A stretch of DNA of 16,617 nt. Origin: a virus. The notes beneath the pieces are model-generated. The model made no database searches. It saw only the letters and a list, made by a program, of their open reading frames with translations, and was not told where the DNA came from. Below are positions 1 through 16,617 of the stretch, piece by piece. How positions within the stretch are numbered: position 1 is the first letter of the stretch; every line of letters starts with the position of its first letter. Made by a program: the position numbers and the translations under genes. The stretch spans positions 192,001 to 208,617 of the IMG/VR virus record IMGVR_UViG_3300029913_000003; one strand, written 5' to 3'.

Positions 1-1392
1 AAATTTTGGATAAAAACCATTCTTATCATATTTATAAGCTCCTCTTCTTCCGATTTCAGTTGCTGCTGCAACAGGGTCGAATACTGAGTAATTTATATTT
101 CCGATAAAACTTGAATAACAAGGATTAACTTTTATTAATATTAATCCATTATTATCACAATGTTTATTTATTAAATTTGTTTGGAAGCCTAAGTTCCAAC
201 AATTATTTATTTTACGACGAACTTCTTTTGACATTTCATCCTGACTATTTGATTTAAAGTTTAAGTCTTCCATCACAAAATAACCACACTTGTAGTGAGT
301 TATTATATCAAATATCTTAACGTAAATGTTACCGATTTCATGTTTTCTTTTTCTGGTTAGATAAAGACTTTCGTCTACGGTAACATCTTTACCTGATTTT
401 TTCATCAACTCACTTAAGTCATAACATTTACTATCAATTACTTTAACTTCATCATTTGATGTTTTATCTAAGATTACTAAACCAATATAATCAGGATTTA
501 AATCAACTGCAGCAAATCTATTTTGATTTTTGCCTACAAGTTTTCGTGATGTTTGTTCTTGTTTATGTTTAATGTAAATGTTTTTGTCGTACTTACCATT
601 ATTCTTTTCTTTGATTTCCTTGATGTAAGTTTTATAATCAAAAGGTTCACCATTAATCATTTCATTATCAACTGTAATACAAAGATATTCATGATCTAAC
701 TTGACTGAAATAGGTAATATATTTAAGTCTTTAATTAATTGAAGATCCTTCAATTGTTTCTTATAATTACCTTTAACTACATAATTGATATAAATTTTAT
801 TCTCGCTGTTCATTTTATAAATGATTTGATTATTAGTAAAATCAAATTCAAAAAATCTATTAGAATTAGGATCACATTTAGATCCGTAAAGACTCAAAGG
901 AAGGATTCTATTCGAATGATATTCATCTGTTTTAGTAATTATAGTGTTTTTATTTTCCTTTTTATCATTATTTAAGTAGGATATTTCTTTTAGTAGTTTT
1001 CTTGTACCGAAAGTAATATCCTTTGATAAATTTCTATTTTTATAACTTAAGTTTTTCTGATATTTAAATAGATTCCTTGTTTCTTTTTTGGTTAATTTTA
1101 TTTTTGATTGTAATTCTTTTATATCATCTTGTAAATCAAGTATTTCCTGTGATAATTTATCTTTATTTGTTTGAATTTGCTTAAATTTTGTCTTAACATC
1201 AATTATTAAACAGTTAGACTCGTAAACACTCAAACCATATATTTTAGTTAATTTAGTAATATATTCTTTATCATTAATTTTATCATAATGTTTATAAAGT
1301 TTACGAAAGAAATATGAAAACTGTTTCTGACGATTTAATATTTTAAGTTTACCCTCTTCACTAACGTTAAATCCAACTTTTATTGATATCAT
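1..1392 (-). CDS. tnpB: IS607-family TnpB/Fanzor-like (OrfB) RuvC-type nuclease. It is 5'-complete (ATG at 1392-1390) and open through the window start, with 464 codons in the window and the C-terminus beyond position 1.
   Basis: I translated the minus strand from 1392 and found it open to position 1 in one frame. I spot-checked the frame at three places. The motifs fit TnpB: RFAAVDLNPDYIGLVILD (RuvC-I Asp), FVMEDLNFKS (RuvC-II Glu), VNPCYSSF (TnpB VDPxYTSQ-like) and FDPVAAATEIGRRG (RuvC-III D..AA.NI..RG). A coiled-coil-like K/E/L-rich N-terminal region is also present. The gene lies directly downstream of a MerR-HTH serine-recombinase tnpA, which is the IS607 arrangement. The CxxC..CxxC zinc finger normally found between RuvC-II and RuvC-III seems to be missing. 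Confidence 0.75.
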   Translation of the reverse strand, partial: MISIKVGFNVSEEGKLKILNRQKQFSYFFRKLYKHYDKINDKEYITKLTKIYGLSVYESNCLIIDVKTKFKQIQTNKDKLSQEILDLQDDIKELQSKIKLTKKETRNLFKYQKNLSYKNRNLSKDITFGTRKLLKEISYLNNDKKENKNTIITKTDEYHSNRILPLSLYGSKCDPNSNRFFEFDFTNNQIIYKMNSENKIYINYVVKGNYKKQLKDLQLIKDLNILPISVKLDHEYLCITVDNEMINGEPFDYKTYIKEIKEKNNGKYDKNIYIKHKQEQTSRKLVGKNQNRFAAVDLNPDYIGLVILDKTSNDEVKVIDSKCYDLSELMKKSGKDVTVDESLYLTRKRKHEIGNIYVKIFDIITHYKCGYFVMEDLNFKSNSQDEMSKEVRRKINNCWNLGFQTNLINKHCDNNGLILIKVNPCYSSFIGNINYSVFDPVAAATEIGRRGAYKYDKNGFYPKF

Positions 1393-1458
1393 ATATTATC
1401 TTGTAGTTCTTTTTTAATTTTATATCATTTATTATCTTGTAGTTCTTTTTTAATTTTA
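1386..1458. repeat. Near-perfect 36-bp tandem duplication (two copies, 1386-1422 and 1422-1458) spanning the tnpA stop and the tnpB start
   Basis: The unit tatcat[a/t]tattatcttgtagttcttttttaatttta occurs twice head to tail with one mismatch. Copy 2 carries the last nine tnpA codons plus its TGA stop. Copy 1 carries the tnpB ATG. Confidence 0.9.
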
Positions 1459-2027
1459 TTTAATTTTCTTCTATTTGAATATGATTTCATAGAGAAATAA
1501 TGAATAATAGAAATCAAATCATCTGTTAATTCTTGTTCATAACTTTTGTTTTGTATGTTATCACTTATGACTATAATTTTAGTACCAAAATATTTAAATA
1601 CTTCAGTAATAAGGTCGAATCCAAATCTACATAATCTATCTTTATTTTCAACTATAACGCATTCAATTTTACCTTCAATAACAAGTTTAATTAATTTATT
1701 TAAACCATCTCTTTCAAATGACATACCTGACTTAATATCTTCAAATTGCTGTTCAATTACTATATCATTTAATATAGAGAATTCATAAATTCTATTAGAT
1801 TGTTCTTTTAAATCATTTTTTCTTGGTTGGTTTGAAACTCTGGCATAACTAACATTAATTCTTTTATGTTTTATTTTTTTAACTCCAATTAATTTATATA
1901 CATCTTCGTCATTATAAATATATGAATAATTATTTATTTTATTAATTTTTATTAATCCTTTTTTAATATATTTACTTAATGTAACTTGGGTTATACCCAA
2001 TATTTCTTTTACTTCTTTTGCTTTCAT
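1425..2027 (-). CDS. tnpA: IS607-family TnpA: serine recombinase with an N-terminal MerR-like HTH
   Basis: This is a 200-aa ORF. The N-terminus MKAKEVKEILGITQVTLSKYIKKG is a MerR/excisionase-type HTH. It is followed by the catalytic-serine motif VSYARVSNQPRKNDLKEQ (YxRVS..Q) and the resolvase core DG..KLIKLV....IECVIVENKDRLCRFGF. The HTH-then-catalytic-domain order is specific to IS607 TnpA, because Hin/Gin invertases have the opposite order. The stop codon is TGA. Confidence 0.85.
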   Translation of the reverse strand: MKAKEVKEILGITQVTLSKYIKKGLIKINKINNYSYIYNDEDVYKLIGVKKIKHKRINVSYARVSNQPRKNDLKEQSNRIYEFSILNDIVIEQQFEDIKSGMSFERDGLNKLIKLVIEGKIECVIVENKDRLCRFGFDLITEVFKYFGTKIIVISDNIQNKSYEQELTDDLISIIHYFSMKSYSNRRKLNKIKKELQDNK

Positions 2028-2078
2028 AATTATATATATTAAATAAAAAATACCGTTTTTTGCTAAAATAATATAATT

Positions 2079-2096
2079 TATATAACGTTATATAAT
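2079..2096. promoter_or_regulatory. 18-bp perfect palindrome ttatataacgttatataa, about 50 bp upstream of the tnpA ATG. It is a candidate TnpA operator or subterminal recombination site.
   Basis: The sequence is exactly self-complementary and centred on a rare CG dinucleotide in otherwise pure A/T DNA. Its function is inferred only from its position. Confidence 0.35.
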
Positions 2097-2168
2097 TATA
2101 ATTAATAGTCTTTTATTATTTTTGTATTACATTTTCAGTTATAAATTCAATATATTTTTTCATATTTT

Positions 2169-4652
2169 TTATTCCCATCTATTATTATAAATATTTGATG
2201 TATACAATTCTTTAGTTGCATTATCAGCTAATATTAAATTATTAGAATCTTGCACTACTCGTTGTAATAATAAATTAGATTTAGATTCATCAGGAATAAC
2301 ATCATCATATATCCTTATATTTGTCAATTTTATATTAGATGAATTTATTATTATATTTTGATCAACATTAAATGTATTTAATGGTACAGTTACTCCTTCA
2401 TATTCATCAATATATTTTATTGACGCTATATTATATAAACTTGTGTCAGTTAATTTATCAGCAATTTCAGTATTTTTAACTGGTCTATATCCATTTGATG
2501 TATAATACGATATGTCATTTATATTTGTATTATCTAATATAACACTTTTATAATTAGGTGTAAACATTGTTATTTTATAATTATATCTTCTTTTAAATAA
2601 ATCTAAACTTATTGTTCTTTGTCTATTATCTAAATTTACAGTTAAACCATACCACATATTTGTTGTTAATCCTGTTATTGGTAAACTATAATTTATGTTA
2701 TTTATAGTCAATGTTATATTATTATTTGCGTAAGATAATTTATATCCTTTATTATTAATTGAATCATAGTTGTTTATAAATTCAAAATAACTTTTATTAC
2801 TAACATAATAAGAATTAAATATATTTTCATCAATTGCCTTATTTGGATCAAAACTATTATTAAAATTAAACCACACATTAAATGCTCTATTATCACTAAA
2901 ATTCAAATTTGAATCTTTATATGTATAAGTAACTGCGGTTGTACCAGAAGATAATGATGATAAATTATAATAGCTATCTGCTATTTTTATATCTTTTAAT
3001 GAATTATAGATATCTTTTTTAATTATCTCTAATTTTGGATTAACAATTAATCTATAAACTTCGTGTGTTATAGGTTTTAATTGTTTATTTGCAATTTTAT
3101 CTTCTTGTTCTCTTATTTCTCCGCCAAATAAAGAATCTATAGTATTATTATTTGTTAATGATTCAATAAGATTTTTTGATGCATTAGAAACATTAGTTTC
3201 ATTTGCAAGTTTTTCATATTTTTCAAGAACAACATTATAATAAACACCCATATACATAATATCTCTTTTTACTTGAGCATGTTTAATTCTATACATACGA
3301 TTTGCTTGACAAAAATATATAATATCTTTTTGGAATGGTCTTTTTTCTATTCCAAATGCATTATGAAATTCGTCTTTTAATATAATAACTTGAAATGTAT
3401 CCATCATATCTAACATATATTCATTTATTTGAACTTGATTATCTGGAAAATTATTTTCAGGTACAATTATTTTTATTTTTTGTGTATCTACTATATTAAA
3501 TAATTGATATTCATGTAATATACTATCTATTCCTTTACCGTCAGGATCTGTTAAATGATAATCAACTGTCCATCCAAATATTTTACCTACTGTATTTGAT
3601 AAATATGTATACCAATCTCCTATTTTTTGTCCAGCATAAGGATTAAATATGCCTTGTGATGCTGCTGTTTGAGTTGAATCTAATCCAGTTGTATTACTTT
3701 GTGAACTTAGACTTGGTATAACATTACCTGATATATAACAACTTAATCCTTTTGTCACCCAATCTTTACTATAATCTAATGGAGTTTTACTATCACCTTT
3801 ATATGATGTTATACCATTTAAACAAACTGAATTTGTACCACTATCTGTTGAATTTGAAATTGTAGTTCCAGTATTTACTGCAGGATAAGAAACTGCACAA
3901 TCCTCTCTAACTCCATATCTATTAGTTTTAAGATAATTATTATTAATATTTTGAAAATCTCCTAATAATATAATATCATAAATTTTAGATGTTGTTCCAG
4001 TATTTATTTTAGAAACTGAATACTCAACTTGTGCAAATCTAATTGGATTTATTTTTACAGTTGATATATTTTCTGTTGTTAAATTTTCCCAAGGCGTATA
4101 TGTTCTACCATTATCTTGAGTGAATCTATATTTAATTTGTAAATTATTAGTATTTGATCCATATATTTCATAACCAGTTAATTTGAAAACTTTATAAATA
4201 TCTTTTGGGGTAAATAATATAAATTCATTATCTGGTATATTAACAATTGTATCTGTTTGTTCAATATCATAAGTTCCTTCGATTACAATTGTATTTATTG
4301 TAAGTGCTGGTATTGTAGTAGTATCAGCATCAATTCTATAATAAGCTAAATTTAAATATAAGTTATTTAATGAGCAATAATCTTGTGTAATTCCTGTAAT
4401 AGGAGAATACTCACTATAACTTATACCACTTCTTGTATTGCTATAAGAAAAATATTTTTTGAAATAATGATCATTAGTTTCTCCTTTTACAATATCTGTA
4501 AATTTTGTAATTGATGATATGCTTTTTAATGGAACGATAGAAAAATTTTTAATATCACGAATTTGAGTAGATATTTCATCTGTATACGTTGGAGTACCTA
4601 ACCAACTCATTGTAAAAGTACCATCAAATTTAGGAGTGTAAATATATCTCAT
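2169..4652 (-). CDS. Hypothetical 827-aa protein rich in N, Y, T and I. It is probably a structural protein.
   Basis: This is a long uninterrupted ORF in a roughly 75% AT background. Its composition and codon usage match the neighbouring genes. I recognised no specific motif. Confidence 0.6.
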   Translation of the reverse strand: MRYIYTPKFDGTFTMSWLGTPTYTDEISTQIRDIKNFSIVPLKSISSITKFTDIVKGETNDHYFKKYFSYSNTRSGISYSEYSPITGITQDYCSLNNLYLNLAYYRIDADTTTIPALTINTIVIEGTYDIEQTDTIVNIPDNEFILFTPKDIYKVFKLTGYEIYGSNTNNLQIKYRFTQDNGRTYTPWENLTTENISTVKINPIRFAQVEYSVSKINTGTTSKIYDIILLGDFQNINNNYLKTNRYGVREDCAVSYPAVNTGTTISNSTDSGTNSVCLNGITSYKGDSKTPLDYSKDWVTKGLSCYISGNVIPSLSSQSNTTGLDSTQTAASQGIFNPYAGQKIGDWYTYLSNTVGKIFGWTVDYHLTDPDGKGIDSILHEYQLFNIVDTQKIKIIVPENNFPDNQVQINEYMLDMMDTFQVIILKDEFHNAFGIEKRPFQKDIIYFCQANRMYRIKHAQVKRDIMYMGVYYNVVLEKYEKLANETNVSNASKNLIESLTNNNTIDSLFGGEIREQEDKIANKQLKPITHEVYRLIVNPKLEIIKKDIYNSLKDIKIADSYYNLSSLSSGTTAVTYTYKDSNLNFSDNRAFNVWFNFNNSFDPNKAIDENIFNSYYVSNKSYFEFINNYDSINNKGYKLSYANNNITLTINNINYSLPITGLTTNMWYGLTVNLDNRQRTISLDLFKRRYNYKITMFTPNYKSVILDNTNINDISYYTSNGYRPVKNTEIADKLTDTSLYNIASIKYIDEYEGVTVPLNTFNVDQNIIINSSNIKLTNIRIYDDVIPDESKSNLLLQRVVQDSNNLILADNATKELYTSNIYNNRWE

Positions 4653-4707: not shown

Positions 4708-5454
4708 TTAAAAATTAACTCTTTCTTTTACTCTTATTGCATAACTTAATATTGATTCATATGTATAATAAGAATTTTTCATTTTAGGGTCTTTATATAA
4801 TTTAAAATCAGGAATAGAAGAAATATCAACTTCTAATATTACCCATTCGTCGATATTCATATTGAATAATTCTGTCTTATCATATTTATTTTTAAAAAAT
4901 TTTCTTTTTTCTGCACAAAATTCTTTAGCATCTGACAAATTGTCAGTTAAATATACTCTATCTACATCATTAGATATCATATTTTGAGATTTAGGAACTA
5001 ATCCTATTTTTTTAATTTTTTCGTAATAATATTTTGTTGTTGCATGATATAATATATCAGGTGTTCCATCAGGTACATCAAATCTTTTTTGAAATGTTAT
5101 ATTAAATATTGTATCTTTTGATATCATTATACTTTTTATTTCTAATCCATTATTATCAATTATACTAGGTTTAAAATATCCCATATTATGCATAAAACTA
5201 GTCAATTCTTTATTAAATTGTTTTTTATTTACATTTGAAATATCAATTGATAATGAAATATATCCTTCTAATTTTTTTATTTCATATTTAATATTATATG
5301 ATTTTATTAAATTATCTAATTTTTCACAAAAAAAGTCATAATCAACAGAATGAATTAATCCCTCCTTCATAGCTAAATAAAAATGATTGTGAAAATAATC
5401 TGCTTCTTCATTAAAATTTCTATATTTTTCAAAATTTTTAAACCTATCTAGCAT
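4708..5454 (-). CDS. 248-aa protein whose C-terminal half resembles the NAD-binding lobe of Tpt1/KptA RNA 2'-phosphotransferase (ADP-ribosyltransferase fold). The catalytic motifs look divergent.
   Basis: The segment ILYHATTKYYYEKIKKIGLVPKSQNMISNDVDRVYLTD lines up with E. coli KptA [32 protein letters not shown], sharing LYH.T, EIKK.GL and R..(V/Y).L. The Tpt1 signature RH and RxHxH histidines are not conserved. I am recalling this from memory and did no search. Confidence 0.4.
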   Translation of the reverse strand: MLDRFKNFEKYRNFNEEADYFHNHFYLAMKEGLIHSVDYDFFCEKLDNLIKSYNIKYEIKKLEGYISLSIDISNVNKKQFNKELTSFMHNMGYFKPSIIDNNGLEIKSIMISKDTIFNITFQKRFDVPDGTPDILYHATTKYYYEKIKKIGLVPKSQNMISNDVDRVYLTDNLSDAKEFCAEKRKFFKNKYDKTELFNMNIDEWVILEVDISSIPDFKLYKDPKMKNSYYTYESILSYAIRVKERVNF

Positions 5455-5543: not shown

Positions 5544-6317
5544 ATGGCTATAATCACCCCTAATGATCTTATTAATCCAACAGAAAAAACAATAAAGAAC
5601 TGGAATTGCTCATTTATTGCAGTTGAAGGTCCAAATATAATTGAAAAATTAAGCTTAGAAGATTTGGCTATTCCATATGAATCTCAATATAGATCGAGAA
5701 TAGTTTTAAAAGCTGGTGAATCTAATAAAATGCTTTACGGATTTATTGGTAAGGCTGTTACATTCTTAATGATAAAAGTAACTTATGATAGTTTATCTGA
5801 TCCATATTATACATATGAACAAGAAAAATATAATATAAATTATTATTTTGAAAATGATCCTATTCTTAGACCATTAAATAGATTATTAATAATGACAGGT
5901 TCTTCTGATGAAAGAATACCACAAATTTATGTGACAAATCCATTAGATTATGACGTAACATTAGATGTATTAGAAGCAACAGTTGATTCTGAATTTGATG
6001 AAGATGATGATATACCTGCTGATTATCAAATACATTATGCTATAACAAATATATCAAGTACATATTCTGGAAAAACAGATGATGAATATATAAGATGTTC
6101 TGGTACAACAGAATCAGGTTCTACATATTCATTATATTTACCGTTAGCAACTGGTACAGGAAATGTATTAACAATCAAAAATATATTAAACGGAGTTATA
6201 ACTATTTTAACACAAGATACAGATTTGATTGATGGTTTAAATTCATATGTATTAAATACTCAATATGAAGTAGTCGTGCTAATTGATGCAGGTACTGGTA
6301 TCTGGGATAAAATATAA
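5544..6317 (+). CDS. Hypothetical protein, paralogue A of a tandem pair. Its N-terminal domain is shared with 6325..7200.
   Basis: I prefer the start at 5544 (MAIITPNDL...) over the track start at 5508. The paralogue begins MAKITSNSL at an equivalent position, and 5508 lies inside a hairpin loop. The conserved blocks are IKNW..F....GP, AIPY.S.Y.SRIVL, KVTY and DPYY.YE...YNINYY......P..RLL...GS......QIY..NPLDYDV.LDV..A. Confidence 0.6.
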   Translation: MAIITPNDLINPTEKTIKNWNCSFIAVEGPNIIEKLSLEDLAIPYESQYRSRIVLKAGESNKMLYGFIGKAVTFLMIKVTYDSLSDPYYTYEQEKYNINYYFENDPILRPLNRLLIMTGSSDERIPQIYVTNPLDYDVTLDVLEATVDSEFDEDDDIPADYQIHYAITNISSTYSGKTDDEYIRCSGTTESGSTYSLYLPLATGTGNVLTIKNILNGVITILTQDTDLIDGLNSYVLNTQYEVVVLIDAGTGIWDKI

Positions 6318-6324
6318 TATAAAT

Positions 6325-7200
6325 ATGGCAAAAATAACAAGTAATAGTCTTTATGGTAAAACAAAAAGAGAAATAAAAAATTGGGGTAGAGATTTTAGAA
6401 CATCAGATGGACCTCAAACATCTTCTGTTATGAGTCTCAGTGATATTGCAATACCGTATGATTCATGTTATACATCAAGAATAGTATTACCTTCTTATAC
6501 TGAAGATTTTTTATTAAATTATGGTATAATTGAAGAATCTACTTTTTTATTATTAAAAGTTACATATAATGGTAATTATGATAATGAGAATGAAGATGCG
6601 TATGATCCATATTATTATTATGAACCAAGTACATATAATATTAATTACTATTATGATTCTAATTCAGGTATAACATATCCAATTGGAAGATTATTGCTTT
6701 TAAATGGCTCATTTCCAAATAAATTAGGACAAATTTATTTGAATAATCCATTAGATTATGATGTAGTTTTAGATGTAATGCAAGCTAATATTGAAGCTCC
6801 AATAGTTCAACCACCAAGTAGTGCAGTAACGATATCAAATTTGTATTATAGTGACATTATAACAAATCAAGTTGAATGTTATTCTTATACTGGATTAACA
6901 ACAGGATCTACTGAATTTATTATTACTGGAATTACATCTTCAATAATAAGTACAGGTTATACAATTACACAATATATAATTCCATATAATACTATTATAT
7001 CAATAAATTCAGATACATCATTATATTACATTTACATAAACACTACATCAACTTATTATACTATTAAATTTTTAACTCAATCTGATTATGAACAAGCATA
7101 TTTTAGAATAATATTCGCGTATTCATCATATACAGATGGTAATTGTAGATATTTAACTACAACAGAAACATACGATAGTGGTAATAATATAAATTGTTAA
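6325..7200 (+). CDS. Hypothetical protein, paralogue B of the tandem pair. Its N-terminal domain is conserved and its C-terminal half is unrelated.
   Basis: The same conserved blocks as 5544..6317 are present. I chose the start at 6325 (MAKITS...) rather than the track start at 6283, which overlaps the previous gene. The gap after the upstream stop codon is 7 nt. Confidence 0.6.
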   Translation: MAKITSNSLYGKTKREIKNWGRDFRTSDGPQTSSVMSLSDIAIPYDSCYTSRIVLPSYTEDFLLNYGIIEESTFLLLKVTYNGNYDNENEDAYDPYYYYEPSTYNINYYYDSNSGITYPIGRLLLLNGSFPNKLGQIYLNNPLDYDVVLDVMQANIEAPIVQPPSSAVTISNLYYSDIITNQVECYSYTGLTTGSTEFIITGITSSIISTGYTITQYIIPYNTIISINSDTSLYYIYINTTSTYYTIKFLTQSDYEQAYFRIIFAYSSYTDGNCRYLTTTETYDSGNNINC

Positions 7201-7219
7201 AAATAAAAATTAATTATAA

Positions 7220-7960
7220 ATGACTATTATATATTATAATTCTCCTATAAGTGGAACTACTTGGATTGGTAGTGGAACTACTGTACCACATAATGCATAT
7301 TTGCATTTATATCATGATAGTGTTACAGGTTGGACATTAAATAGTTTAAAACATCTATTCATTAGTGGAATAACTGGTTGCATTTCAGTGAATATACCAT
7401 TAGATAATATAACTTTTGAGTTATATGAGAAAGGTACAAATATACAATTATATGAATTAACAAAATATGGACAATATTTTATATATATTTCAATTTCAGA
7501 TTCTGTTGGAAATATAACTACATCATATATTTATAATATTGTTGTAAATGATAGTTCTCCTGAAATAATATTTAATTGTAATATTTTTAATTCAGGATTG
7601 ACAGGAAATACTATTGATTTTTCTGGAGCAACTGGTATAACATCAGGAATTAATATTTATTCTGGCGTAACATTTAATCTTTTTGAATTTGATAAAAATA
7701 TAATTAATAAAGTTGATATAATTTATAATTGTATATGCTATGTGATTGATAATATTGATTATTGTATCAATAAATATATGATAAATGTTTTAATTATAGG
7801 ATCAAATTTATTAAATAATAATGAGTATCAAGAAATTTCTATACCAGGTTATTATTGCATAAAATTATCTTTAATAAATAGTACAAATTATGAGATTGTT
7901 TATTATTTTCTTGTAGATGCTGTTTATGATCCAAATAATTATAATTCTAATATTTATTAA
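7220..7960 (+). CDS. Hypothetical 246-aa protein
   Basis: The ORF is co-directional with its neighbours and starts 19 nt after the previous stop, in a TAAATG context. I recognised no motif. Confidence 0.5.
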   Translation: MTIIYYNSPISGTTWIGSGTTVPHNAYLHLYHDSVTGWTLNSLKHLFISGITGCISVNIPLDNITFELYEKGTNIQLYELTKYGQYFIYISISDSVGNITTSYIYNIVVNDSSPEIIFNCNIFNSGLTGNTIDFSGATGITSGINIYSGVTFNLFEFDKNIINKVDIIYNCICYVIDNIDYCINKYMINVLIIGSNLLNNNEYQEISIPGYYCIKLSLINSTNYEIVYYFLVDAVYDPNNYNSNIY

Positions 7961-8013
7961 TATTATTGACCTAATAAAATAAATATATAAATTAGTAAAA
8001 ATTAAATAAATAA

Positions 8014-8631
8014 ATGAGTAAAGTAACTTTTGATGGATCAGCAAAAATAATAACTATAAATAGTGGAGTAACAAGTATTGATGTTAAAACTGATTTATAT
8101 TTAGAATGGAAGCAATGGGTATTAGAAGGAGATAATTCTAAATGGCTAGCTGCATTCAGATCATTTGGTGGTGATCCAACTACATTAAATCAAAATGCTC
8201 CAAGCTACTTTTTTTTAACTAATAATTGGATAGTTAAAATAGAAAATTTAAATGTAGCAATACAAGATAATTTATATTCAGATGATTATGATATTCCTTA
8301 TCTAAATATAAATTCTACAATATTATCAAAAAATTCTGATATACCTAGTATTGATAGTTTAACTGGTATTACAGAAACATTATCAGATATGAATAATACT
8401 ATCATAGATATTTCATTTGATGTTAAACATATATTAGGATTATCACAGCAAAATTATAGATTAAGTAATCATGTTTATGATGATGATTTTAGATTGACAT
8501 CAGTTACAATAAAATTATTTAATACTAAAACTGATTGTAATAATAATGTTAATAGTTTTGCTAATTATACAATGAATGCGGCTTATGATGATAATGGATT
8601 ATTAATTGATTATAAAGTAGTTAAAAATTAA
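8014..8631 (+). CDS. Hypothetical 205-aa protein
   Basis: This is an ORF in the same co-directional cluster. Its N-terminus KVTFDGSAKIITINSGVTSIDVKTDLYLEWKQWV looks like a globular beta-rich domain. I recognised no confident family. Confidence 0.5.
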   Translation: MSKVTFDGSAKIITINSGVTSIDVKTDLYLEWKQWVLEGDNSKWLAAFRSFGGDPTTLNQNAPSYFFLTNNWIVKIENLNVAIQDNLYSDDYDIPYLNINSTILSKNSDIPSIDSLTGITETLSDMNNTIIDISFDVKHILGLSQQNYRLSNHVYDDDFRLTSVTIKLFNTKTDCNNNVNSFANYTMNAAYDDNGLLIDYKVVKN

Positions 8632-8639
8632 TTCTTATT

Positions 8640-8978
8640 ATGATTAATCACATAACAACAAATTTAGTAACTAAAGGTTTATTGAATATTTCTAATATTA
8701 CAAAAGGAATGATACAAATTAAGTATCAAATAATATTTAGAAAAAGAGGAGGATCGAGTGCTAATGTTGTTCATTCATATGATAATGATGAAGCATTCTA
8801 TGATGAACTTAGAAAGCATAAAGAAGAAGAAATTGACTACATAAAAGTGTTTGTTGATTGGAAAGGAGCAAAATTAAAAGCATTTAAAAAAATTGAAGTT
8901 AAATTATTAAAAGAACATATTGAAGCAGAAATATTATTAAAAACAAATAAAAAATTCACAGTAGAAATAATAAAATAA
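8640..8978 (+). CDS. Hypothetical 112-aa basic protein
   Basis: The ORF starts 8 nt after the previous stop, and a hairpin follows it immediately. Confidence 0.45.
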   Translation: MINHITTNLVTKGLLNISNITKGMIQIKYQIIFRKRGGSSANVVHSYDNDEAFYDELRKHKEEEIDYIKVFVDWKGAKLKAFKKIEVKLLKEHIEAEILLKTNKKFTVEIIK

Positions 8979-9008
8979 AAAAGATGTAATTTATATTACA
9001 TCTTTTTT
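8977..9008. terminator. Perfect AT-rich stem-loop between the convergent genes 8640..8978(+) and 9023..9583(-). The stem is up to 14 bp (core aagatgtaat/attacatctt) and the loop is ttat.
   Basis: I verified the arms by reverse complementation. There are only two G:C pairs and the T-run is part of the stem. This looks more like the AT-rich 3'-end hairpins reported for Mimiviridae transcripts than a classical rho-independent terminator. Either way it is a bidirectional 3'-end signal candidate. Confidence 0.5.
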
Positions 9009-9022
9009 TATAAATATTTAAG

Positions 9023-9583
9023 TTATTTAAATGAATCAAATTTCATTATACTGGAAACTACTTTTTCTTCTTTTTTAGATTTTTCTGTTTCTTCATCAAC
9101 ATCTTCTTCAACAATTTCTATTTTTTTCTCAAAAGCTGCTTCCAATTTTGAGATTGTGTCATTTTTCTCGACTACTTTTTCAACTTTTTTTTCAACTTTT
9201 TTTTCAACAATTGGTTTATTTTCAAATTTTGTTTCTGATACAGATATTCTTGGTTTATTTGAAGGTTTTTGAATTTCAGATACCATTTCTTCTATTTTAA
9301 TAGAAGCTTTACTTTTTATTTCAAAATTATCTTGCCACACTGGAAAATATAAATCTTCTGATATAATTTCAAATTTTATTTTTCCATTATCACCTTTTTC
9401 ATATAGACTCAATTTAGGAATTTCAAATCTACAAATATCATTTTCAATCTTACCTATTAAAAGAACATTTTTATTTTCTTTTGTCATTAATATTAATCTT
9501 GGCTCAACATCATTTACGTTAATGCCATCACTATTTATTTTAAATTTTAAAATATCATTCTCTTTATTGTTAAATAAATCCAT
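9023..9583 (-). CDS. Hypothetical 186-aa protein with a K/E-rich acidic-basic repetitive C-terminal tail (VEKKVEKKVEKVVEK)
   Basis: It is the only minus-strand ORF in this stretch. Its own AT-rich upstream region is 9584-9688. Its C-terminal tail is low-complexity. Confidence 0.5.
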   Translation of the reverse strand: MDLFNNKENDILKFKINSDGINVNDVEPRLILMTKENKNVLLIGKIENDICRFEIPKLSLYEKGDNGKIKFEIISEDLYFPVWQDNFEIKSKASIKIEEMVSEIQKPSNKPRISVSETKFENKPIVEKKVEKKVEKVVEKNDTISKLEAAFEKKIEIVEEDVDEETEKSKKEEKVVSSIMKFDSFK

Positions 9584-9603
9584 ATTAATTATTTATTTTT
9601 TAT

Positions 9604-9651
9604 ATTCTATATATTAATAAAAAAATATAGAATTATATATTAAAATTTTGA
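9604..9651. promoter_or_regulatory. Divergent promoter region. A 9-bp inverted repeat (attctatat / atatagaat, 12-nt spacer) lies at 9604-9633, and a second copy of the decamer AAAATTTTGA lies at 9642-9651.
   Basis: The arms are verified. The decamer sits 47 nt upstream of the 9689 ATG, and the identical decamer sits 46 nt upstream of the 5544 ATG. Confidence 0.35.
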
Positions 9652-9688
9652 TCTTCTTTTTTTAATATATAATAAAAAATTAAGTTTA

Positions 9689-11047
9689 ATGTCAACTGGA
9701 GTAATACTTCCAAATAATTCGTTAATAGCAGATTTGACCAGTAAATATTGGCTTTATTTTTCAGATAATTTTGGAAGTATAAATGCTACACTTATTAATG
9801 ATTCTAATGGACATCCAATAACAGGATATATATCTGGAAGAACCTCAATTTATTATGATTTTGATTATTCTGGTAATACTCAAGAAGGTAGAATACCAAA
9901 CACTGATGTAGATTTTACTGCTGTTGCCATTGGGCAAAATATCGCTAGATATTCTATAATTAAAGGTGTAATCACAAGTGGTTTAACAAATATAATTTTA
10001 ACTTCGGATACAGATTGGAATTATTCTGGTAATACTCAAGGAACAAGTGGCACATCAGGAATAGATGGAGAAAATGGTACATCAGGAGCTTCTGGTAGTG
10101 AAACTCTTGAACTTACAATTACTGGAGTTCAAGATGGTATAAATAAGAATTTTATATTATCTAGCGGAGTCAGTTATATCCACATGTTTTATGTTGATGG
10201 TCAATTACAAACATATAATAACGATTATTATGTTTCTGGATTAACTTTAACATTTATTAAAATACCACCTAAAGAAAGTGATATTTTAAGATTATTCATC
10301 ACACAGCATGGCGGTGTTTTTGGTACATCAGGAACAGATGGAACATCAGGAACAGATGGAACATCAGGAGCTTCTGGTAGTGAGTCTCTTGAAATTACAA
10401 TTACTGGAATTCAAGATGGTATAAATAAGAATTTTATATCATCAAGTGGTATTAGTGAAAATCATATGTTTTATGTTGATGGTCAATTACAAACATATAA
10501 TAACGATTATTATGTTTCTGGATTAACTTTAACATTTATTAAAAATCCTCCTAAAGAGAGTGATATTTTAAGATTGTTTATTACTCAGCATGGCGGTGTT
10601 TTTGGTACATCAGGAACAAACGGTACAAGCGGATCATCAGGGTCATCAGGTAGTTCAGGGTCATCAGGTAGTTCAGGTTCATCAGGTAGTTCTGGAACAA
10701 ATGGTACATCAGGTATAAATGGAGATATTATAAACGAAATTGATATTTCTGGAATTCAAGATGGAGTAAATAAAAATTTTATATTATCAAATGAAATTGT
10801 AAGTGAAAATCATATGTTTTATGTAGATGGACAATTACAAACATATAATAATGACTATTATATCTCTGGATTAACTTTAACATTTATTAAAATTCCGCCT
10901 AAATATAATTATATTTTAAGATTGTTTGGTAGTATAGGCACAAATTATCATAATGGAATTACTATTAATCAAAATATTGTTGTTGATAATTATGGAACAA
11001 TAAAAACATTAAATATTGTTAATGGTTTGATAATATCAATAACATAA
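9689..11047 (+). CDS. Collagen-like repeat protein of 452 aa. It has G-X-Y tracts (GTSGTDGTSG...) alternating with three globular modules of about 94 aa each. I read it as a fibre/fibril component.
   Basis: G-X-Y runs occur at about 10040-10100, 10321-10385 and 10606-10735, including (GSS)8. The module ITG(V/I)QDG(I/V)NKNFI.S....S..HMFYVDGQLQTYNNDYY(V/I)SGLTLTFIK.PPK...ILRLF is repeated three times. Confidence 0.7.
   Translation: MSTGVILPNNSLIADLTSKYWLYFSDNFGSINATLINDSNGHPITGYISGRTSIYYDFDYSGNTQEGRIPNTDVDFTAVAIGQNIARYSIIKGVITSGLTNIILTSDTDWNYSGNTQGTSGTSGIDGENGTSGASGSETLELTITGVQDGINKNFILSSGVSYIHMFYVDGQLQTYNNDYYVSGLTLTFIKIPPKESDILRLFITQHGGVFGTSGTDGTSGTDGTSGASGSESLEITITGIQDGINKNFISSSGISENHMFYVDGQLQTYNNDYYVSGLTLTFIKNPPKESDILRLFITQHGGVFGTSGTNGTSGSSGSSGSSGSSGSSGSSGSSGTNGTSGINGDIINEIDISGIQDGVNKNFILSNEIVSENHMFYVDGQLQTYNNDYYISGLTLTFIKIPPKYNYILRLFGSIGTNYHNGITINQNIVVDNYGTIKTLNIVNGLIISIT
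10132..10940 (+). repeat. Three internal direct repeats within the collagen-like gene. Copies 1 and 2 are almost identical at the nucleotide level, and copy 3 is diverged.
   Basis: For example, caagatggtataaataagaattttata occurs at 10132 and again at 10414, a period of about 282 bp. The third copy is near 10756. There is also a 9-bp-unit microsatellite (ggtagttca/ggttcatca) at about 10630-10700. Confidence 0.85.
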
Positions 11048-11098
11048 ATTATCAATAACATAAATTATCAATAACATAAATTATCAATAACATAATTT
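11035..11098. repeat. 16-bp tandem repeat atcaataacataaatt in four copies, the last with one mismatch. It overlaps the stop codon of 9689..11047 and ends 35 bp before the fibre gene ATG.
   Basis: I counted the repeat directly: 11035-11050, 11051-11066, 11067-11082 and 11083-11098. Confidence 0.9.
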
Positions 11099-11132
11099 TA
11101 TATATAATATAAATAAAAATAAATTAAAAATA

Positions 11133-14100
11133 ATGAGTACAAGATTAGATGCGAATGATAGATTAAAAGGATTAAGTTTTAAAAAACCTTGTATCGTTGC
11201 GACATTAGAAAATGTAAATTTAACAGGGTCAACTAATGTAATTGATGGAGTATCTTTAAATTTAAATGATAGAATATTAGTCATAAATCAGATAGATCAG
11301 ATAGATAATGGTATTTATATTGTTTCAAATGTTGGTACAGGTTCTGATGGCGTTTTATTACGAGCAAATGATTTTTCTACAAGTGATGATATATTTGCTG
11401 GAATTAACATTTATATTTTATCAGGAGATACATATAATGATAGTTATTTCATATTAAATACCGAAAATCCTATATTAGATATTACTCCGTTATTTTTCTC
11501 TAATAAAAAAATGTTAGATACTCAAAATGTAAGTAATAATCAAGTATTATTATATAATAATAATTCAATAATTGGTTATACAGGACTAACATATGATGGT
11601 AATACATTAGATATAAATGGTAATGTTAATATAACAGGTAATACAACAGTAATTGGAAATATTATTTCAAATACAATATCTGTAACAGGAGGAACTTCAA
11701 CTCAATTTTTAAAAGCTGATGGATCTATTGATTCAACATCATATACTGATTTTAATTTATTTACTGGTGAAACATTTGATAGAATAAGTGGTGATACATA
11801 TTTGAATAATTTATTAACAGGTGAAACATTTGATAGATTATCAGGTGATACATTTTTAAATGAATTATTAACAGGTGAAACATTTGATAGAATTTCAGGA
11901 GATACATTTTTAACTGAATTATTAACTGGTGAAACATTTGATAGAATTTCTGGAGACACAGTATTAAATGATTTAATTACAGGATTAACTTCAACAGTTA
12001 ATAATAATTATAATTTATTAACAGGTGAAACATTTAATAGAATAAGTGGAGATACAGTATTAAATGATTTAATTGAAGAGTTATCAATAAATGCTCAAAA
12101 TCAAATGAATAATGAAATTAATAATAGAATTTCAGGAGATACATTATTGAATAATTTACTAACTGGTGAAACATTTGATAGAATAAGCGGAGACACTTTT
12201 TTAAATGAATTATTAACAGGTGAAACATTTGATAGAATAAGCGGAGACACAATATTAAATAATTTAATTACTGGATTGACATCAACAGTTACGGATAATT
12301 ATAATTTATTAACAGGTGAAACATTTAATAGAATTTCAGGAGACACATTTTTAAATAATTTAATTACAGGATTAACACAGAATATTATAAATAATTATGT
12401 ACCTTATACTGGATCTACATCAAATATAGACTTAGGATATAATAATTTAACAGCTAGTTCAATTATTAAATCTGGTGGTACATCTAATCAATTTTTAAAG
12501 GCTGATGGAACTATTGATATAACTACATATTCAAATACTGGTCATAGTCATTATCAATTATTTCAACCAAATGGTACAACTCCTTTTGTCTATACAGATA
12601 ATGGTGGGTCATTTCATATTGATGGAAATATTATTCAATCAGGATCAACATATGAAACTCATACAGAACAAATATACACTACTAAAGATTATATTTATTT
12701 GAGAAGTGGAGCAACTTCTGGATTACCTGATGGACAATATGCAGGATTTACAGCTAAATTATATGACGGATCTAATGATGGTCAATTAGTCTTTGATAAT
12801 AAAGGCTTTGCAAGAGTTGGAGACGTAGGTAGTTTATTGAAATTAGCAGCTATTCAAGAAACACCTACAGATACACAATTTACTTACTATGATGCTGCAA
12901 CTTATTCATTAAAAACACGTGCTTTTTTAAGTGGTGATATTACAACGGCTTTAGGATTTACTCCTTATAACGCAACTAACCCATCTAATTATATAACAAT
13001 TGGATCAGTTCCTGTTGTAGCTACAACAACTCCTTTAATAAATGGAATTGCTGCAATTGGAGCAAGTGGTAAATGGGCTGATGGAGCACATGTTCATCCA
13101 GTTGATACTTCAAGACAAGTTGCATTAAGCGGAACTGGATTTGTAAAAAGCACATCAGGAACTATTAGTTATGACACTTCTACTTATATTCCAGTCACAG
13201 GAAATACAAATACAATAAACTTAGGTGTTAATAATTTAACAGTAGATACAAATACTCTGTTTGTTGATTCTGTTCATCACTATTTAGGTATTACTACAAA
13301 TAATCCTAATGCGTCAGTTGATATTGGAGGTTTTGGTACACCTTCTGATTATGGAGGAGGAACTGGTACGGCTAAAGTTTTAATTGCTGATAACGCGACA
13401 GGGTCATCTGGTGTTCAAATGTATAATTCTAATTCAGGAACAGCCTCTGATTTTAGATTTGCCATTTTTAATAATAATAAAAATGAATATATGGCATTTT
13501 CAACGCCAGCCGATACTAATACTAATACTTTATTTGGATTTGCAAGAAGTACATCTAATTATTTATTTAATAATTTAAATGGAGTAGGTGGCACTCTTAG
13601 AAATTTAACTATTGGTACGGTTGGAAGTTCTGACCTTATATTTGGAACTAACAATGTAGAAAATTTAAGAATAAAATCTGGAGGTAATGTCGGGATTGGA
13701 ACTACTACTCCAGGAACGTTATTAGAAATAAGTAACTCTGCAAATATATCTATTAATTCAATTTTAAGGATTAGAGACATTAATACTGGTGGTTCATATT
13801 TTGATATCGGTTCTGCTAATGGTAGTAGTGGATTATTCATTAATCAAGGCTCTACTAAGATAATGCAAATTAGAAGTAGTGGAAATGTAGGATTTGGAAC
13901 TTCATCAACCCCTAACGCAAGATTTAATATTTATAAAAGTGGAATAATTGATTATTTCAATATTACAAGTTCAGTTGATGGTGATGTGATGGTTATCTTA
14001 AATAATGGCAACGTCGGGATTGGAGCTACCACTCCAGACCAAAAATTATCAGTTTGGGGTGGTTCACAAAATATTATTGATCCAACAACTTTAGGTTCTG

Positions 14101-16617
14101 AAAGCTTAACTAATGGTACGTTATCTGGTGGAACTTCTTGGACTGCAACAAATGATTGTACTTTAGTATCTAATAACGCAACTTGGACTTTTTCTGGTGG
14201 AACTGCTTCAACTCTTACACAAACGAATGCTAATTTAACAGTTGCAGGAGTAGGATATAGATGGTATAAATTTGTTTATACAGTATCAGCTATTTCTGGA
14301 ACTCCATCTGCATCAATAACAACATCTTTTGGCGGATCAACAACTTCTCTTACTATAACAGCTGGAGCACAAACTACTTATTTTAAAGCAGCTACTACAC
14401 CTACTGATTTTGTTATTACTTCTACTTTGGTATCAGGACAGACATTCACATTGGGTACGTTTTCGTTAAAAGAAGTTCAAGGTGGAAATTTAATAACTGG
14501 TGGATTGTTAACTGGTGGAGGTACAACTGGTATTAAAGTTTTAGCAAATGGAAATGTTGGAATTGGAACAACTACTCCTGGACAATTACTTGAAGTAAAT
14601 AATGGGCACATAAATGTTTTAAATACCAATTATGGACTTCTATTAGCTTCTAATCAAGCTCTAACTAGGAATGGAGCAAAACTTGTACTTGCTAACTCAA
14701 GTGCATTTACTTCTATGGGGTTGAGTACCGTAGGAGTTGAAAGAATTTCTATTGATAGTTCAGGGAACGTAGGTATTGGAGTAACTCCAACGTCTATGCT
14801 TACTCAAAAATCTACAACCGCATTAGAATCTGCTACGTTAGGAACTGAATTAACAGCTTCTGGAGATACTTGGGGATTAGCAACAACTAAAAGCATAACT
14901 GCTTTTGCAAATTATGGATCTACTGTTGCTGGAACAGTTGAAGTAACTTCAAATGCTCATGGATTTCCAGCTGGAACAACAACTAATGTTGTAATATCAG
15001 GAACTACTAATTATAATGGTACATACACAATAACATATATTGATGTTAATAACTTTTATATTACGGCAACTTGGGTATCGAACGATGCAACTGGAACTGC
15101 AACTCAAACTGGTTGGTCTGGAACTTATGCTGGTGGATACACACACTCAACTGGAAATACAACAGCATTAACTGATTCTACATTGGTTCCAGTGGTTGGT
15201 AATTTATACCAAATAACTTATACAGTAACAAATAGGACGACAGGAACATTTACGATTACATTCGGCGGAGTTACATCTTATACTTATTCAGCAACAGGCT
15301 CATATGGTCCTAAAGCTGCAACAGTAGGAACATTAACTATTGCTCCAACGACTGATTTTAATGGCACAATAATACTTTCAATTAAATTAATTGCATCATA
15401 TTCTCCTATTTATGTTATTCAAGATAGTTCTTCTGCTAATACATTAGAAATTCGTAGTTCTTTAAATACTTCAGTAAATTTATTCATAGGTAAAAACTCT
15501 GGAAGATATAATACAACAGGTATTAATAATACTTCACTTGGATCTGGAGCGTTACCGATAAATTCAACTGGATTTAATAATGTTGCAATTGGTGGTAGTG
15601 CTATGCAAGCGAATACAGCTGGATTTTCTAATATCTCTATAGGTTTTAATTCCCTTTTAAGCAATACTGTCGGTTATGCCAATACATCAATTGGTAATGC
15701 AACTCTACAAAATAATTCTATTGGTTATTATAACACAGCAGTTGGTATAAGTGTTCTTGTCACTAACACAGCTGGGTATTATAATACAGGCATTGGAGCA
15801 AGCGCGCTTAGTTCAAATTCTACTGGATATTATAACACTGCGATAGGAATTAATTCTATTAATTTAAATACTACTGGTTTTTATAATACTGCATTAGGTG
15901 GTAATTCTCTTAGTTCAAATTCAGTTGGATCATACAATACTGCTGTTGGCTATTCATCGATAAGTAATATTGTATCTTCATATAATACTGCTATTGGTTA
16001 TATATCTGGTCGTTATATAACTGGAGGGGTAACAACTAATATCAATTCTTATAATTCTGTCTATATTGGAGCAAATACAATGGCATCTGCTGATGGCAAT
16101 TCAAATGAAATAGTAATTGGATATAACGCAACTGGTAATGGAAGTAACTCAGTAACATTAGGTAATACATTAATTACTAAAACTATTTTACAGGGTAATA
16201 CTGGTATTGGCGGATATACAACTCCTTTACATTTCTTAGATAATACTCAAACTCAGAATCAACGCACTGTTTATGGATTAAACGTGGTGATGAATGCTAC
16301 TAATCTTCAACAAGATATAGTATCTACAGGTAATGATGAACCACTTTTAAATCAATACTATGCCTGGAAATTTACCGCAAGTGCTGCAAACACAATGGGT
16401 TCGTTATCAGTTAGATTGAAGAAAATAGGTACTGTTACAAATACAACAGATTATATTAGACTTAAATTATATTCAGATACAGGTACAGCCCCAAATGCTT
16501 TATTATACACTTCTGATCAGGTTAAAATGGGCACATTAACGACTTCTTATGTTGAATACTTGTTTGGTGGAGACTATACGATGGTTAATGGTACTTCATA
16601 TTGGTTAGTAGTTGAAA
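11133..16617 (+). CDS. Giant fibre/adhesin-like protein of more than 1828 aa. It is 3'-truncated by the window edge. It carries tail-fibre-like repeats and YadA-head-like beta-helical repeats.
   Basis: The ATG is at 11133 (MSTRLDANDRLKGL...) and the frame stays open to the last base, verified at 13380 and 16560. All ORFs the track lists in this span are antisense or off-frame shadows. The fibre contains 18-aa tandem repeats LTGETFDRISGDTxLNxL at about 11755-12390, five SGNVGIGTTTP(G/D)..L-type motifs from 13681 to 14790, and N-T-A-(I/V)-G 14-15-aa repeats at about 15520-16000. The composition is G/T/N/S-rich throughout. Confidence 0.8.
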   Translation, partial: MSTRLDANDRLKGLSFKKPCIVATLENVNLTGSTNVIDGVSLNLNDRILVINQIDQIDNGIYIVSNVGTGSDGVLLRANDFSTSDDIFAGINIYILSGDTYNDSYFILNTENPILDITPLFFSNKKMLDTQNVSNNQVLLYNNNSIIGYTGLTYDGNTLDINGNVNITGNTTVIGNIISNTISVTGGTSTQFLKADGSIDSTSYTDFNLFTGETFDRISGDTYLNNLLTGETFDRLSGDTFLNELLTGETFDRISGDTFLTELLTGETFDRISGDTVLNDLITGLTSTVNNNYNLLTGETFNRISGDTVLNDLIEELSINAQNQMNNEINNRISGDTLLNNLLTGETFDRISGDTFLNELLTGETFDRISGDTILNNLITGLTSTVTDNYNLLTGETFNRISGDTFLNNLITGLTQNIINNYVPYTGSTSNIDLGYNNLTASSIIKSGGTSNQFLKADGTIDITTYSNTGHSHYQLFQPNGTTPFVYTDNGGSFHIDGNIIQSGSTYETHTEQIYTTKDYIYLRSGATSGLPDGQYAGFTAKLYDGSNDGQLVFDNKGFARVGDVGSLLKLAAIQETPTDTQFTYYDAATYSLKTRAFLSGDITTALGFTPYNATNPSNYITIGSVPVVATTTPLINGIAAIGASGKWADGAHVHPVDTSRQVALSGTGFVKSTSGTISYDTSTYIPVTGNTNTINLGVNNLTVDTNTLFVDSVHHYLGITTNNPNASVDIGGFGTPSDYGGGTGTAKVLIADNATGSSGVQMYNSNSGTASDFRFAIFNNNKNEYMAFSTPADTNTNTLFGFARSTSNYLFNNLNGVGGTLRNLTIGTVGSSDLIFGTNNVENLRIKSGGNVGIGTTTPGTLLEISNSANISINSILRIRDINTGGSYFDIGSANGSSGLFINQGSTKIMQIRSSGNVGFGTSSTPNARFNIYKSGIIDYFNITSSVDGDVMVILNNGNVGIGATTPDQKLSVWGGSQNIIDPTTLGSESLTNGTLSGGTSWTATNDCTLVSNNATWTFSGGTASTLTQTNANLTVAGVGYRWYKFVYTVSAISGTPSASITTSFGGSTTSLTITAGAQTTYFKAATTPTDFVITSTLVSGQTFTLGTFSLKEVQGGNLITGGLLTGGGTTGIKVLANGNVGIGTTTPGQLLEVNNGHINVLNTNYGLLLASNQALTRNGAKLVLANSSAFTSMGLSTVGVERISIDSSGNVGIGVTPTSMLTQKSTTALESATLGTELTASGDTWGLATTKSITAFANYGSTVAGTVEVTSNAHGFPAGTTTNVVISGTTNYNGTYTITYIDVNNFYITATWVSNDATGTATQTGWSGTYAGGYTHSTGNTTALTDSTLVPVVGNLYQITYTVTNRTTGTFTITFGGVTSYTYSATGSYGPKAATVGTLTIAPTTDFNGTIILSIKLIASYSPIYVIQDSSSANTLEIRSSLNTSVNLFIGKNSGRYNTTGINNTSLGSGALPINSTGFNNVAIGGSAMQANTAGFSNISIGFNSLLSNTVGYANTSIGNATLQNNSIGYYNTAVGISVLVTNTAGYYNTGIGASALSSNSTGYYNTAIGINSINLNTTGFYNTALGGNSLSSNSVGSYNTAVGYSSISNIVSSYNTAIGYISGRYITGGVTTNINSYNSVYIGANTMASADGNSNEIVIGYNATGNGSNSVTLGNTLITKTILQGNTGIGGYTTPLHFLDNTQTQNQRTVYGLNVVMNATNLQQDIVSTGNDEPLLNQYYAWKFTASAANTMGSLSVRLKKIGTVTNTTDYIRLKLYSDTGTAPNALLYTSDQVKMGTLTTSYVEYLFGGDYTMVNGTSYWLVVE
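11755..12390 (+). repeat. 54-bp (18-aa) tandem repeat array inside the fibre gene. Copies of ttaacaggtgaaacatttgatagaat(t/a)(t/a)caggagatacattttt are interrupted by two NNYNLLTGETFNRISGDT variants.
   Basis: I read the array directly. It is flanked by two roughly 60-nt related segments encoding (T/S)GGTS(T/N)QFLKADG(S/T)ID at about 11680-11740 and about 12470-12530. Confidence 0.85.

Follow-up and report, generated by a model that had tools for sequence, protein, structure and literature searches.

A likely fibre module of known kind, built from undescribed protein families, in an uncultivated huge tailed phage

What kind of virus carries a run of adaptor-like, collagen-like, and giant repeat-protein genes, and what would their products build on the virion? 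The question is raised by a stretch of the IMG/VR virus record IMGVR_UViG_3300029913_000003 (positions 192,001 to 208,617 of that record), which we analyzed as a window of 16,617 nucleotides (nt). The block under study extends from position 5544 to the window end at 16617 and contains eight genes; a preliminary description, made from the DNA letters, had counted seven of them on the plus strand and one on the minus strand, which their positions confirm. It had presented the block as a host-attachment gene set of either an unusual phage or a giant virus. Our analysis indicates that the block is probably a fibre module, most likely a receptor-binding one, of an uncultivated huge tailed bacteriophage related to the Mahaphage clade. 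The preliminary description is partly supported by this outcome. It correctly recognized a fibre or host-attachment gene set containing adaptor paralogues and overstated the unusualness of its design: this is a phage fibre module of known kind, built from undescribed protein families. To our knowledge, no phage with a genome larger than 500 kb has been cultivated, and the virion architecture and host recognition of such phages are almost unexplored.

The genome was identified through g2 (2169-4652, minus strand; 827 amino acids, aa), which encodes a gp14-like neck protein and lies outside the block as its conserved divergent neighbor. In tblastn searches, g2 is 26-39% identical to proteins of LR756501-4, LR745206, and LR756500 (genomes of uncultured phages, of 735, 642, 636, 635, and 462 kb). 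Its similarity to gp88 of Sphingomonas phage PAU and to the “neck protein” in jumbo phages of Tenacibaculum and Chryseobacterium is weaker. Genomes larger than 634 kb have been assigned to Mahaphage, with Bacteroidetes as predicted hosts (PMC7162821). Homologues of g2 at 38-80% identity are present in eleven IMG/VR loci, and about 500 further unnamed homologues are found in metagenomes, on contigs of up to 735 kb. Near-identical contigs (99.6-100%) of 7-245 kb were recovered from ENA, JGI, and Logan assemblies, including the WOOD18-1 records. A megablast search of the whole window against phage records returned an insertion sequence (IS) element only. The genome is that of an uncultivated huge tailed bacteriophage related to the Mahaphage clade and not that of a giant virus.

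The predicted structure of g2 agrees with a neck assignment. An AlphaFold2 model built from a 35-sequence alignment (predicted local distance difference test score, pLDDT, 71) contains an ordered N-terminal beta-sandwich (residues 1-237), a mixed core (350-530), and a C-terminal beta-sandwich (533-815) that is LamG/pentraxin-like, together with a region of ~110 residues modelled as disordered. The modelled core has the gp14 core fold, and fold matches include T4 gp13/gp14 neck assemblies with E values of 1e-5 to 2e-3, 17-18% identity, and a target template-modelling (TM) score of ~0.5. Residues 406-456 give a weak profile match to residues 103-152 of T4 gp14 (E 0.014 over 50 residues), and within these aligned 50 residues the two proteins have the motif ...P..GD.IYF...N..y.I in common. 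Residues 329-592 match the PTm1 “neck protein” with an hhalign probability of 98.3% and an E value of 2e-14. Nothing aligns between the g2 profile and T4 gp13, PDB sequence and profile searches with g2 are empty, and Pfam, PHROGs, and NCBIfam (hereafter the three family libraries) yield weak, sub-threshold matches only. We conclude that g2 is a gp14-type neck (head-closure) protein with ~570 extra residues, three times T4 gp14 in size. The model suggests that the collar of these huge phages is decorated and possibly carbohydrate-binding.

The block itself opens with two paralogues, parA (5544-6317, plus strand; 257 aa) and parB (6325-7200, plus strand; 291 aa). All homologues back the parA start at 5544 over that of a longer open reading frame (ORF) from 5508. 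The two proteins are 46% identical over their first ~150 residues (1-158; E 3e-40) and have unrelated C-termini, that of parA being a variable beta domain. An alignment of 35 family members contains 26 invariant positions in the first 145 residues, beyond which the C-termini resist alignment. Among 1.84 billion cluster representatives, searched exhaustively with HMMER, the family comprises 207 clusters only, in which the domain is always N-terminal and protein lengths range from 150 to 1036 aa. Both the alignment and the 207 clusters therefore display a conserved anchor joined to an exchangeable distal part. Long members give sub-threshold matches to immunoglobulin (Ig)-like and BACON domains, some members contain collagen runs, and some end in a “...TLHFVNGLxTGYTD” tip that resembles the C-terminal end of g10, the collagen-like protein encoded farther along the block.

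The predicted fold of parA points to fibre adaptors. In a monomer prediction of moderate confidence, a disordered N-terminal arm of ~45 residues precedes a beta-sandwich. The best fold match of the model is the proximal subunit of the long tail fibre of Klebsiella phage KP1 (score 10.0). It is followed by the Solidus tailspike (9.8), two entries for the N-terminal anchor and assembly region of CBA120 TSP4 (9.7 and 9.4), and the KP1 baseplate protein Gp9 (8.8); generic cupins come next, scoring no higher than 8.1. A branched tailspike complex is assembled on TSP4-N, which anchors it to the baseplate and contains XD domains with the T4 gp10 fold (PMC8825819). Profile comparisons of the family by hhalign give probabilities of at most 0.1% against T4 gp9 and gp10 and are negative against the small proteins beside the neck genes of PTm1 and MA9V-2. 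Profile and sequence searches of the PDB with the family alignments returned nothing relevant, and neither parA nor parB has a match in the three family libraries. It is thus only at the level of the modelled fold that the assignment of parA and parB as adaptor proteins is supported. The shared N-terminus, the unrelated C-termini, and the fold matches of the parA model bear out the earlier suggestion of adaptor-like paralogues with variable tips. The further suggestion that the assembly signals are unlike those of known phage modules is not supported, as the best matches of parA are gp9/gp10-type adaptors and the CBA120 TSP4 anchor.

parB is followed by g6 (7220-7960, plus strand; 246 aa), a beta-rich accessory protein with no match in the three family libraries and no tblastn match in phage records. 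Its relatives in loci L003, L004, and L007 are enlarged to 408-651 aa, being duplicated or extended, and in L008 parB and g6 are fused in one ORF (1123-2676, minus strand). Among contigs L018-L020, which are otherwise 98.6-99.5% identical, g6 carries twelve substitutions in 51 bp (7411-7461) and parB a 12-bp indel (6878-6889). Within the adaptor-proximal genes, these two segments stand out as local hot spots of variation. Targeted mutagenesis of g6, of the kind driven by diversity-generating retroelements, was considered and rejected: the substitutions are not confined to adenines, and there was no sign of a template repeat.

Conservation of gene order was examined in a comparison set of 11 related loci. 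In nine of them, g2 is the divergent neighbor of one or two parA-family genes; the spacing is ~75 bp in the closest relatives because g3, which lies between g2 and parA in the window, is absent there. A parB orthologue follows parA in L003-L005 and L007-L009, and in 9 of the 11 loci the adaptor genes are followed by genes for proteins of 668-2424 aa, most of which have collagen-like runs. These loci include that of the 735-kb phage, where a parA-like gene (376 aa) precedes a 211-aa ORF, a 1664-aa fibre, a 242-aa ORF, and a 2372-aa fibre, in this order, the two fibres matching Collagen with E values of 5e-102 and 5e-46; there and in the 636-kb phage, g2 is again the divergent neighbor of the block. 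A 1498-aa protein of L004 combines a collagen run with two copies of a segment 57-61% identical to residues 448-595 of g11, the giant fibre protein at the end of the block. Fibre segments are shuffled among loci, and fibre N-termini differ from locus to locus. Since parA, parB, g6, and the long fibres recur together in related genomes, the data support the view that this core behaves as one fibre module. The single self-contained module proposed earlier survives in this core but does not extend to g7-g8, found in one relative and inverted there, or to g9, found in none.

The linkage of g2 and parA, though frequent, is not universal: it is absent from two of four complete Mahaphage genomes, LR756502 and LR745206, in which ~100 kb separate g2 from the parA-like gene. 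The latter again has very large ORFs beside it; the neighbors of the distant gene in LR756502 include no recognizable baseplate gene. At these sites (L028, LR756502 293310-333732; L029, LR745206 269011-309400), the parA-family gene is flanked by co-directional ORFs of 1696-1916, ~900, and ~320 aa, in which we found no collagen runs and no family matches. This is a second, different arrangement of an adaptor with giant proteins. On the far side of g2, the genes are non-structural everywhere (UvsW-type helicase, glutamyl-tRNA synthetase (GluRS), M16 peptidase).

The first of the long fibre genes, g10 (9689-11047, plus strand; 452 aa), encodes a fibre protein whose collagen-like character the preliminary description had recognized. 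It matches Pfam Collagen PF01391 with an E value of 2e-9 and 37.5 bits (cutoff 27.2) and contains G-X-Y runs of 7, 8, and 15 triplets. A unique N-terminal region of ~115 residues is followed by three units, each composed of a G-X-Y run and a beta domain of ~70 residues, and the gene contains a 282-bp repeat. Neither the ~70-residue domains nor the N-terminal 115 residues have named relatives in the three family libraries; g10 matches many tail-fibre PHROGs, solely via its G-X-Y runs. Its C-terminal tip motif is common to some parA-family members. In a near-identical 86-kb contig (L016), a C-to-A change at 10347 (g10 codon 220) creates a stop codon and leaves ORFs of 219 and 193 aa, which represents either a natural knockout or truncation of the fibre or an assembly variant.

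The second, g11 (11133->16617, plus strand), encodes a giant fibre protein whose reading frame runs past the window end. Of its residues, 1828 lie in the window; the near-identical 245-kb contig L022 gives a full length of 2152 aa. Residues 1-130 form an N-terminal domain in common with proteins, carrying fibre or virion structural annotations, of cyanophage PSS2 and of Ralstonia, Xanthomonas, Gordonia, and Mycobacterium phages; a word-indexed search with the g11 N-terminus returned 3 proteins only. Beyond this domain, the protein contains eight 18-residue TGETFDRISGDT repeats (~210-410), five GNVGIG motifs (850-1215), about ten 17-residue NTAIG-type repeats (1466-1620), and, past the window end in L022, 10-residue GVYG repeats (1879-1960). 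The sole PHROG match of g11, to PHROG 4636 “tail spike” (E 3e-20), falls in the NTAIG zone. By tblastn, the repeats match 69 phage records with E values down to 1e-16, among them Flavobacterium, Roseobacter, Pelagibacter, cyanophage, Staphylococcus, and Lactococcus phages, and many of those listed are annotated as tail spike or tail fibre. As judged from these alignments, g11 is a homologue of phage tail fibres and tail spikes over parts of its length only.

Residues 835-981 of g11 weakly match the Bdellovibrio fibre Bd2133 (PDB 8ond; E 0.0018), no Pfam family is found at E<=0.1 and no NCBIfam family at E<=0.05, the C-terminal 324 residues have no tblastn match in phage records, and the C-terminus in L022 has no anchor-like match. 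The repeats had been called YadA-like, a label that describes a visual resemblance only: g11 has no YadA_head or Hep_Hag match, its period is 17 and not 14, and no membrane anchor is present. Nor is there support for the earlier view that the combination of collagen and repeat fibres is unusual, for the G-X-Y runs and the g11 repeats both match many annotated phage tail fibres.

G+C content varies from 19 to 37% across 1-kb windows, and the whole window is strongly AT-rich. G+C at third codon positions (GC3) is 6-15% in every gene, indicating one codon usage throughout the block. A foreign origin of g11, considered because of the rise in G+C along the gene, was rejected on this ground; as GC3 is constant at 6-15%, the rise reflects amino-acid composition.

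These results allow us to propose how the module might work. parA and parB would be anchored to the virion via the conserved N-terminal arm and beta-sandwich, with their unrelated C-terminal domains either binding host surface structures directly or serving as docking sites, and g6 would extend parB. Long fibres carried by or beside the adaptors would be formed by g11, with its 2152 residues, and by g10, whose short collagen-like runs presumably hold it together as a trimer. Host range might then shift by module swaps downstream of the conserved anchors. By analogy with gp9/gp10-type complexes, the most likely attachment site would be the periphery of the baseplate, which is the weakest step of the scheme.

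Several observations weigh against this proposal. The preliminary description had recognized no tape measure, sheath, or baseplate hub, and none is found in the window by the three family libraries. No baseplate, sheath, or tube gene was recognized within 10-20 kb in the window, L001, L004, L008, L022, or L028, and none of the collected fibre-block proteins had a significant BLAST match to T4 gp8-gp15. The flanking genes are non-structural (UvsW-type helicase, GluRS, NAD synthase), and the only recognizable structural neighbor is the neck protein, which fits a site at the neck as well as one at the baseplate. The membership of parA, parB, g10, and g11 in the virion is read from the genes themselves, and the scheme gives no role to g7, g8, and g9.

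The strongest competitor, which we nevertheless consider rather doubtful, is that the fibres are neck appendages of the collar or whisker type. parA and parB would dock on g2 and carry the collagen-like and giant fibres, and the extra beta-sandwich and lectin-like domains of g2 would be displayed around the neck; the fibres might make the first contact with cells or particles or sense the environment, like T4 fibritin. g2 is the sole recognizable structural gene beside the block and its divergent neighbor in most relatives, its ~570 residues beyond the gp14-like core include the LamG/pentraxin-like domain, and baseplate genes were not found nearby. In T4, the whisker gene wac is immediately adjacent to genes 13 and 14. 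Fibritin binds the neck in T4, yet its partner there is gp13 and not gp14 (PMC12929629). Flexible fibre-like appendages have been reported on the heads of the related phages PTm1 and PTm5 (PMC10537231, citing Kawato 2020). The best fold matches of parA, in contrast, are baseplate-side adaptors, and the ~100 kb between the parA-like gene and the neck gene in two complete Mahaphage genomes shows that the two genes need not be linked. Baseplate and neck are not distinguished by gene order, because T4 gp9-gp12 are encoded in the same cluster as wac-13-14. An enlarged gp14-like neck protein acting as a lectin-bearing collar that recruits parA-family adaptors with interchangeable collagen-like and giant repeat fibres is, in our estimate, possible at about one chance in several. 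If it were true, an expanded “whisker” apparatus would be the primary cell-capture device in a clade of the largest known phages.

A location at the baseplate periphery is still favored here for the module as a whole. An improbable alternative is that the block is not one apparatus: parA, parB, and g6 would be a small unit of adaptors or decoration proteins, g10 and g11 would be independent fibres, for example the head or tail-sheath “hairs” that exist in other jumbo phages, and g7-g9 would be unrelated inserts. The genes between g6 and g10 lend themselves to this idea. g7 (8014-8631, plus strand; 205 aa) and g8 (8640-8978, plus strand; 112 aa, small and charged) form a variable cassette that occurs among the relatives only in L008 (126-1126, plus strand), inverted relative to the adaptor genes, where the g8 homologue is 59% identical and directly follows that of g7. 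The N-terminal ~100 residues of g7 resemble small hypothetical proteins of Virus Rctr197k and Maribacter phage Panino, whose genes are surrounded by large ORFs with no annotation beyond hypothetical or “similar to structural protein”. g7 has weak, sub-threshold matches only in the three family libraries and none in PDB searches, and g8 has no family match in the same libraries. The minus-strand gene g9 (9023-9583; 186 aa) is an ORFan with a lysine- and glutamate-rich (K/E-rich) tail, as described before, with 41% K+E in its C-terminal 87 residues; it has no homologue in any related locus or in phage records and no family match. Under the favored reading, too, we regard g7, g8, and g9 as variable accessories, with g9 probably outside the core module.

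Between the convergent g8 and g9 lies a hairpin (8977-9008, both strands), which had been proposed to isolate the minus-strand gene and is confirmed here. Its 14-nt arms (8977-8990 and 8995-9008) pair perfectly around a 4-nt loop, and it is flanked by an A-run and, opposite, a T-run. Its folding z-scores are -5.9 and -5.4 on the two strands, and 0 of 200 shuffled sequences fold equally well; it is a bidirectional terminator-like element. This hairpin and the opposite-strand gene divide the block, the fibre N-termini vary by locus with no common docking peptide evident, and the nonsense codon in g10 of a near-identical strain indicates that g10 may be dispensable. Nevertheless, although the fibre sequences have turned over completely, large fibre genes still follow the adaptors in almost all related loci, which argues for functional coupling and against separate units.

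The least tenable reading, to which we assign almost no weight, is a Mimiviridae-like surface-fibril locus of a giant eukaryotic virus, raised earlier as an undescribed surface-fibre system: very low G+C, collagen-like repeats, and an IS607-type element, all of which also occur in giant viruses, would suit it, but it is already refuted by the relatives of g2 (all of them phage genomes or IMG/VR phage contigs, the closest being phages of 634-735 kb) and by the gp14-like tailed-phage neck fold of g2 and its homology to jumbo-phage neck proteins, including the PTm1 profile match. The T4-type UvsW helicase among the flanking genes of relatives also speaks against it; in contrast to Mimiviridae fibril loci, the context is that of a tailed phage, and no glycosyltransferase gene was found in the block by library scans including Pfam.

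The spacing and intergenic elements of the block were also analyzed. The gaps of 7-53 nt described previously apply to the first run of genes, from parA to g8 (7, 19, 53, and 8 nt), but not to the g10-g11 gap, which is 85 nt and is occupied by five copies of the 16-bp tandem repeat TATCAATAACATAAAT (11034-11114). The repeat overlaps the g10 stop codon, and its copy number falls from five in the window to three in L016, L022, and L023 (32 bp fewer). A dyad-containing promoter had been suggested for g9. The dyads do exist in the g9/g10 intergenic region, but folding there does not exceed that of shuffled AT-rich sequence (z -1.8), neither the T4-type late promoter motif TATAAATA nor sigma-70-like sites are enriched, and no promoter could be demonstrated. 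At a distance of 18 nt, one TATAAATA motif precedes the g11 start.

Genes around the block complete the picture. In L022, a 166-aa ORF (17888-18388) directly follows g11 on the same strand and appears by eye to encode a multi-pass membrane protein; it has no family match and could be unrelated to the fibres, serving, for example, in lysis or superinfection exclusion. A convergent NAD synthase gene after this ORF ends the block. At the other end, g3 (4708-5454, minus strand; 248 aa), between the neck gene and parA, has a weak, below-cutoff match to Tpt1/KptA (RNA 2'-phosphotransferase; E 0.0096) and is absent from all IMG/VR relatives, indicating a lineage-specific insertion. Downstream of g2, an IS607-type element occupies positions 1-2127. 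It encodes a serine recombinase with a MerR-type helix-turn-helix (HTH; 1425-2027, minus strand), which matches PHROG 6620 “transposase” (E 3e-44), and a second ORF (1-1392, minus strand) that is cut by the window end. The 533-aa product of the latter has no Pfam match; candidate RuvC-like Asp/Glu/Asp motifs are visible by eye, and it may be TnpB-like. The near-identical contig L018 lacks the element, whose insertion is therefore polymorphic, and a 36-bp indel at 1404-1439 distinguishes strains.

Conserved anchors, mosaic distal fibres, and collagen spacers are familiar from smaller phages. What the locus adds is a first point of entry to the machinery with which the largest phages recognize their hosts, through three handles: a recognizable neck protein, an unnamed adaptor family with swappable tips, and fibre genes that travel with both. 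Together, these handles mark the positions of host-range determinants in such genomes. Possible uses include host prediction, the tracking of strain-level fibre variation in metagenomes, and the choice of structural targets.

Comparison with known systems places the parts of the block individually. Like collagen-like phage tail fibre and minor tail proteins (PHROGs 6320, 3904, 5073, and 1806), g10 contains short G-X-Y runs, presumed to be trimerising spacers between globular domains; its match to them is confined to these runs. g11 shares with YadA-type head repeats and with Bd2133 the serial short Gly/Asn/Thr-rich repeats typical of trimeric beta-structured adhesins, whereas its nearest repeat homologues are in phage tail fibres and spikes. 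The T4 cluster 9-10-11-12-wac-13-14 differs in several respects: the neck gene here is divergently transcribed, g2 has three times the length of gp14 and added lectin-like domains, and no homologue of gp13, gp15, fibritin, or gp11/gp12 was found near the block. The two arrangements are alike in placing fibre adaptors, fibres, and a gp14-like neck gene side by side.

A further close parallel is with branched complexes of the T4 gp9/gp10 type, represented by CBA120 TSP1-4 with TSP4-N, by Alcyoneusvirus RaK2 and phiK64-1, and by T4 gp9 and gp10-gp11-gp12. The parA family differs from these in having no detectable sequence similarity to gp9 or gp10, the block is not beside baseplate genes, and the distal proteins are collagen-like and repeat fibres instead of enzymatic tailspikes. 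Small proteins or N-terminal modules with a beta-sandwich of the XD type may be a point of resemblance, as suggested by the fold matches of a parA model of moderate quality. The conserved anchor with exchangeable distal parts and the row of several paralogous adaptor genes, followed by the fibres or spikes that they carry, are features of both (PMC8825819).

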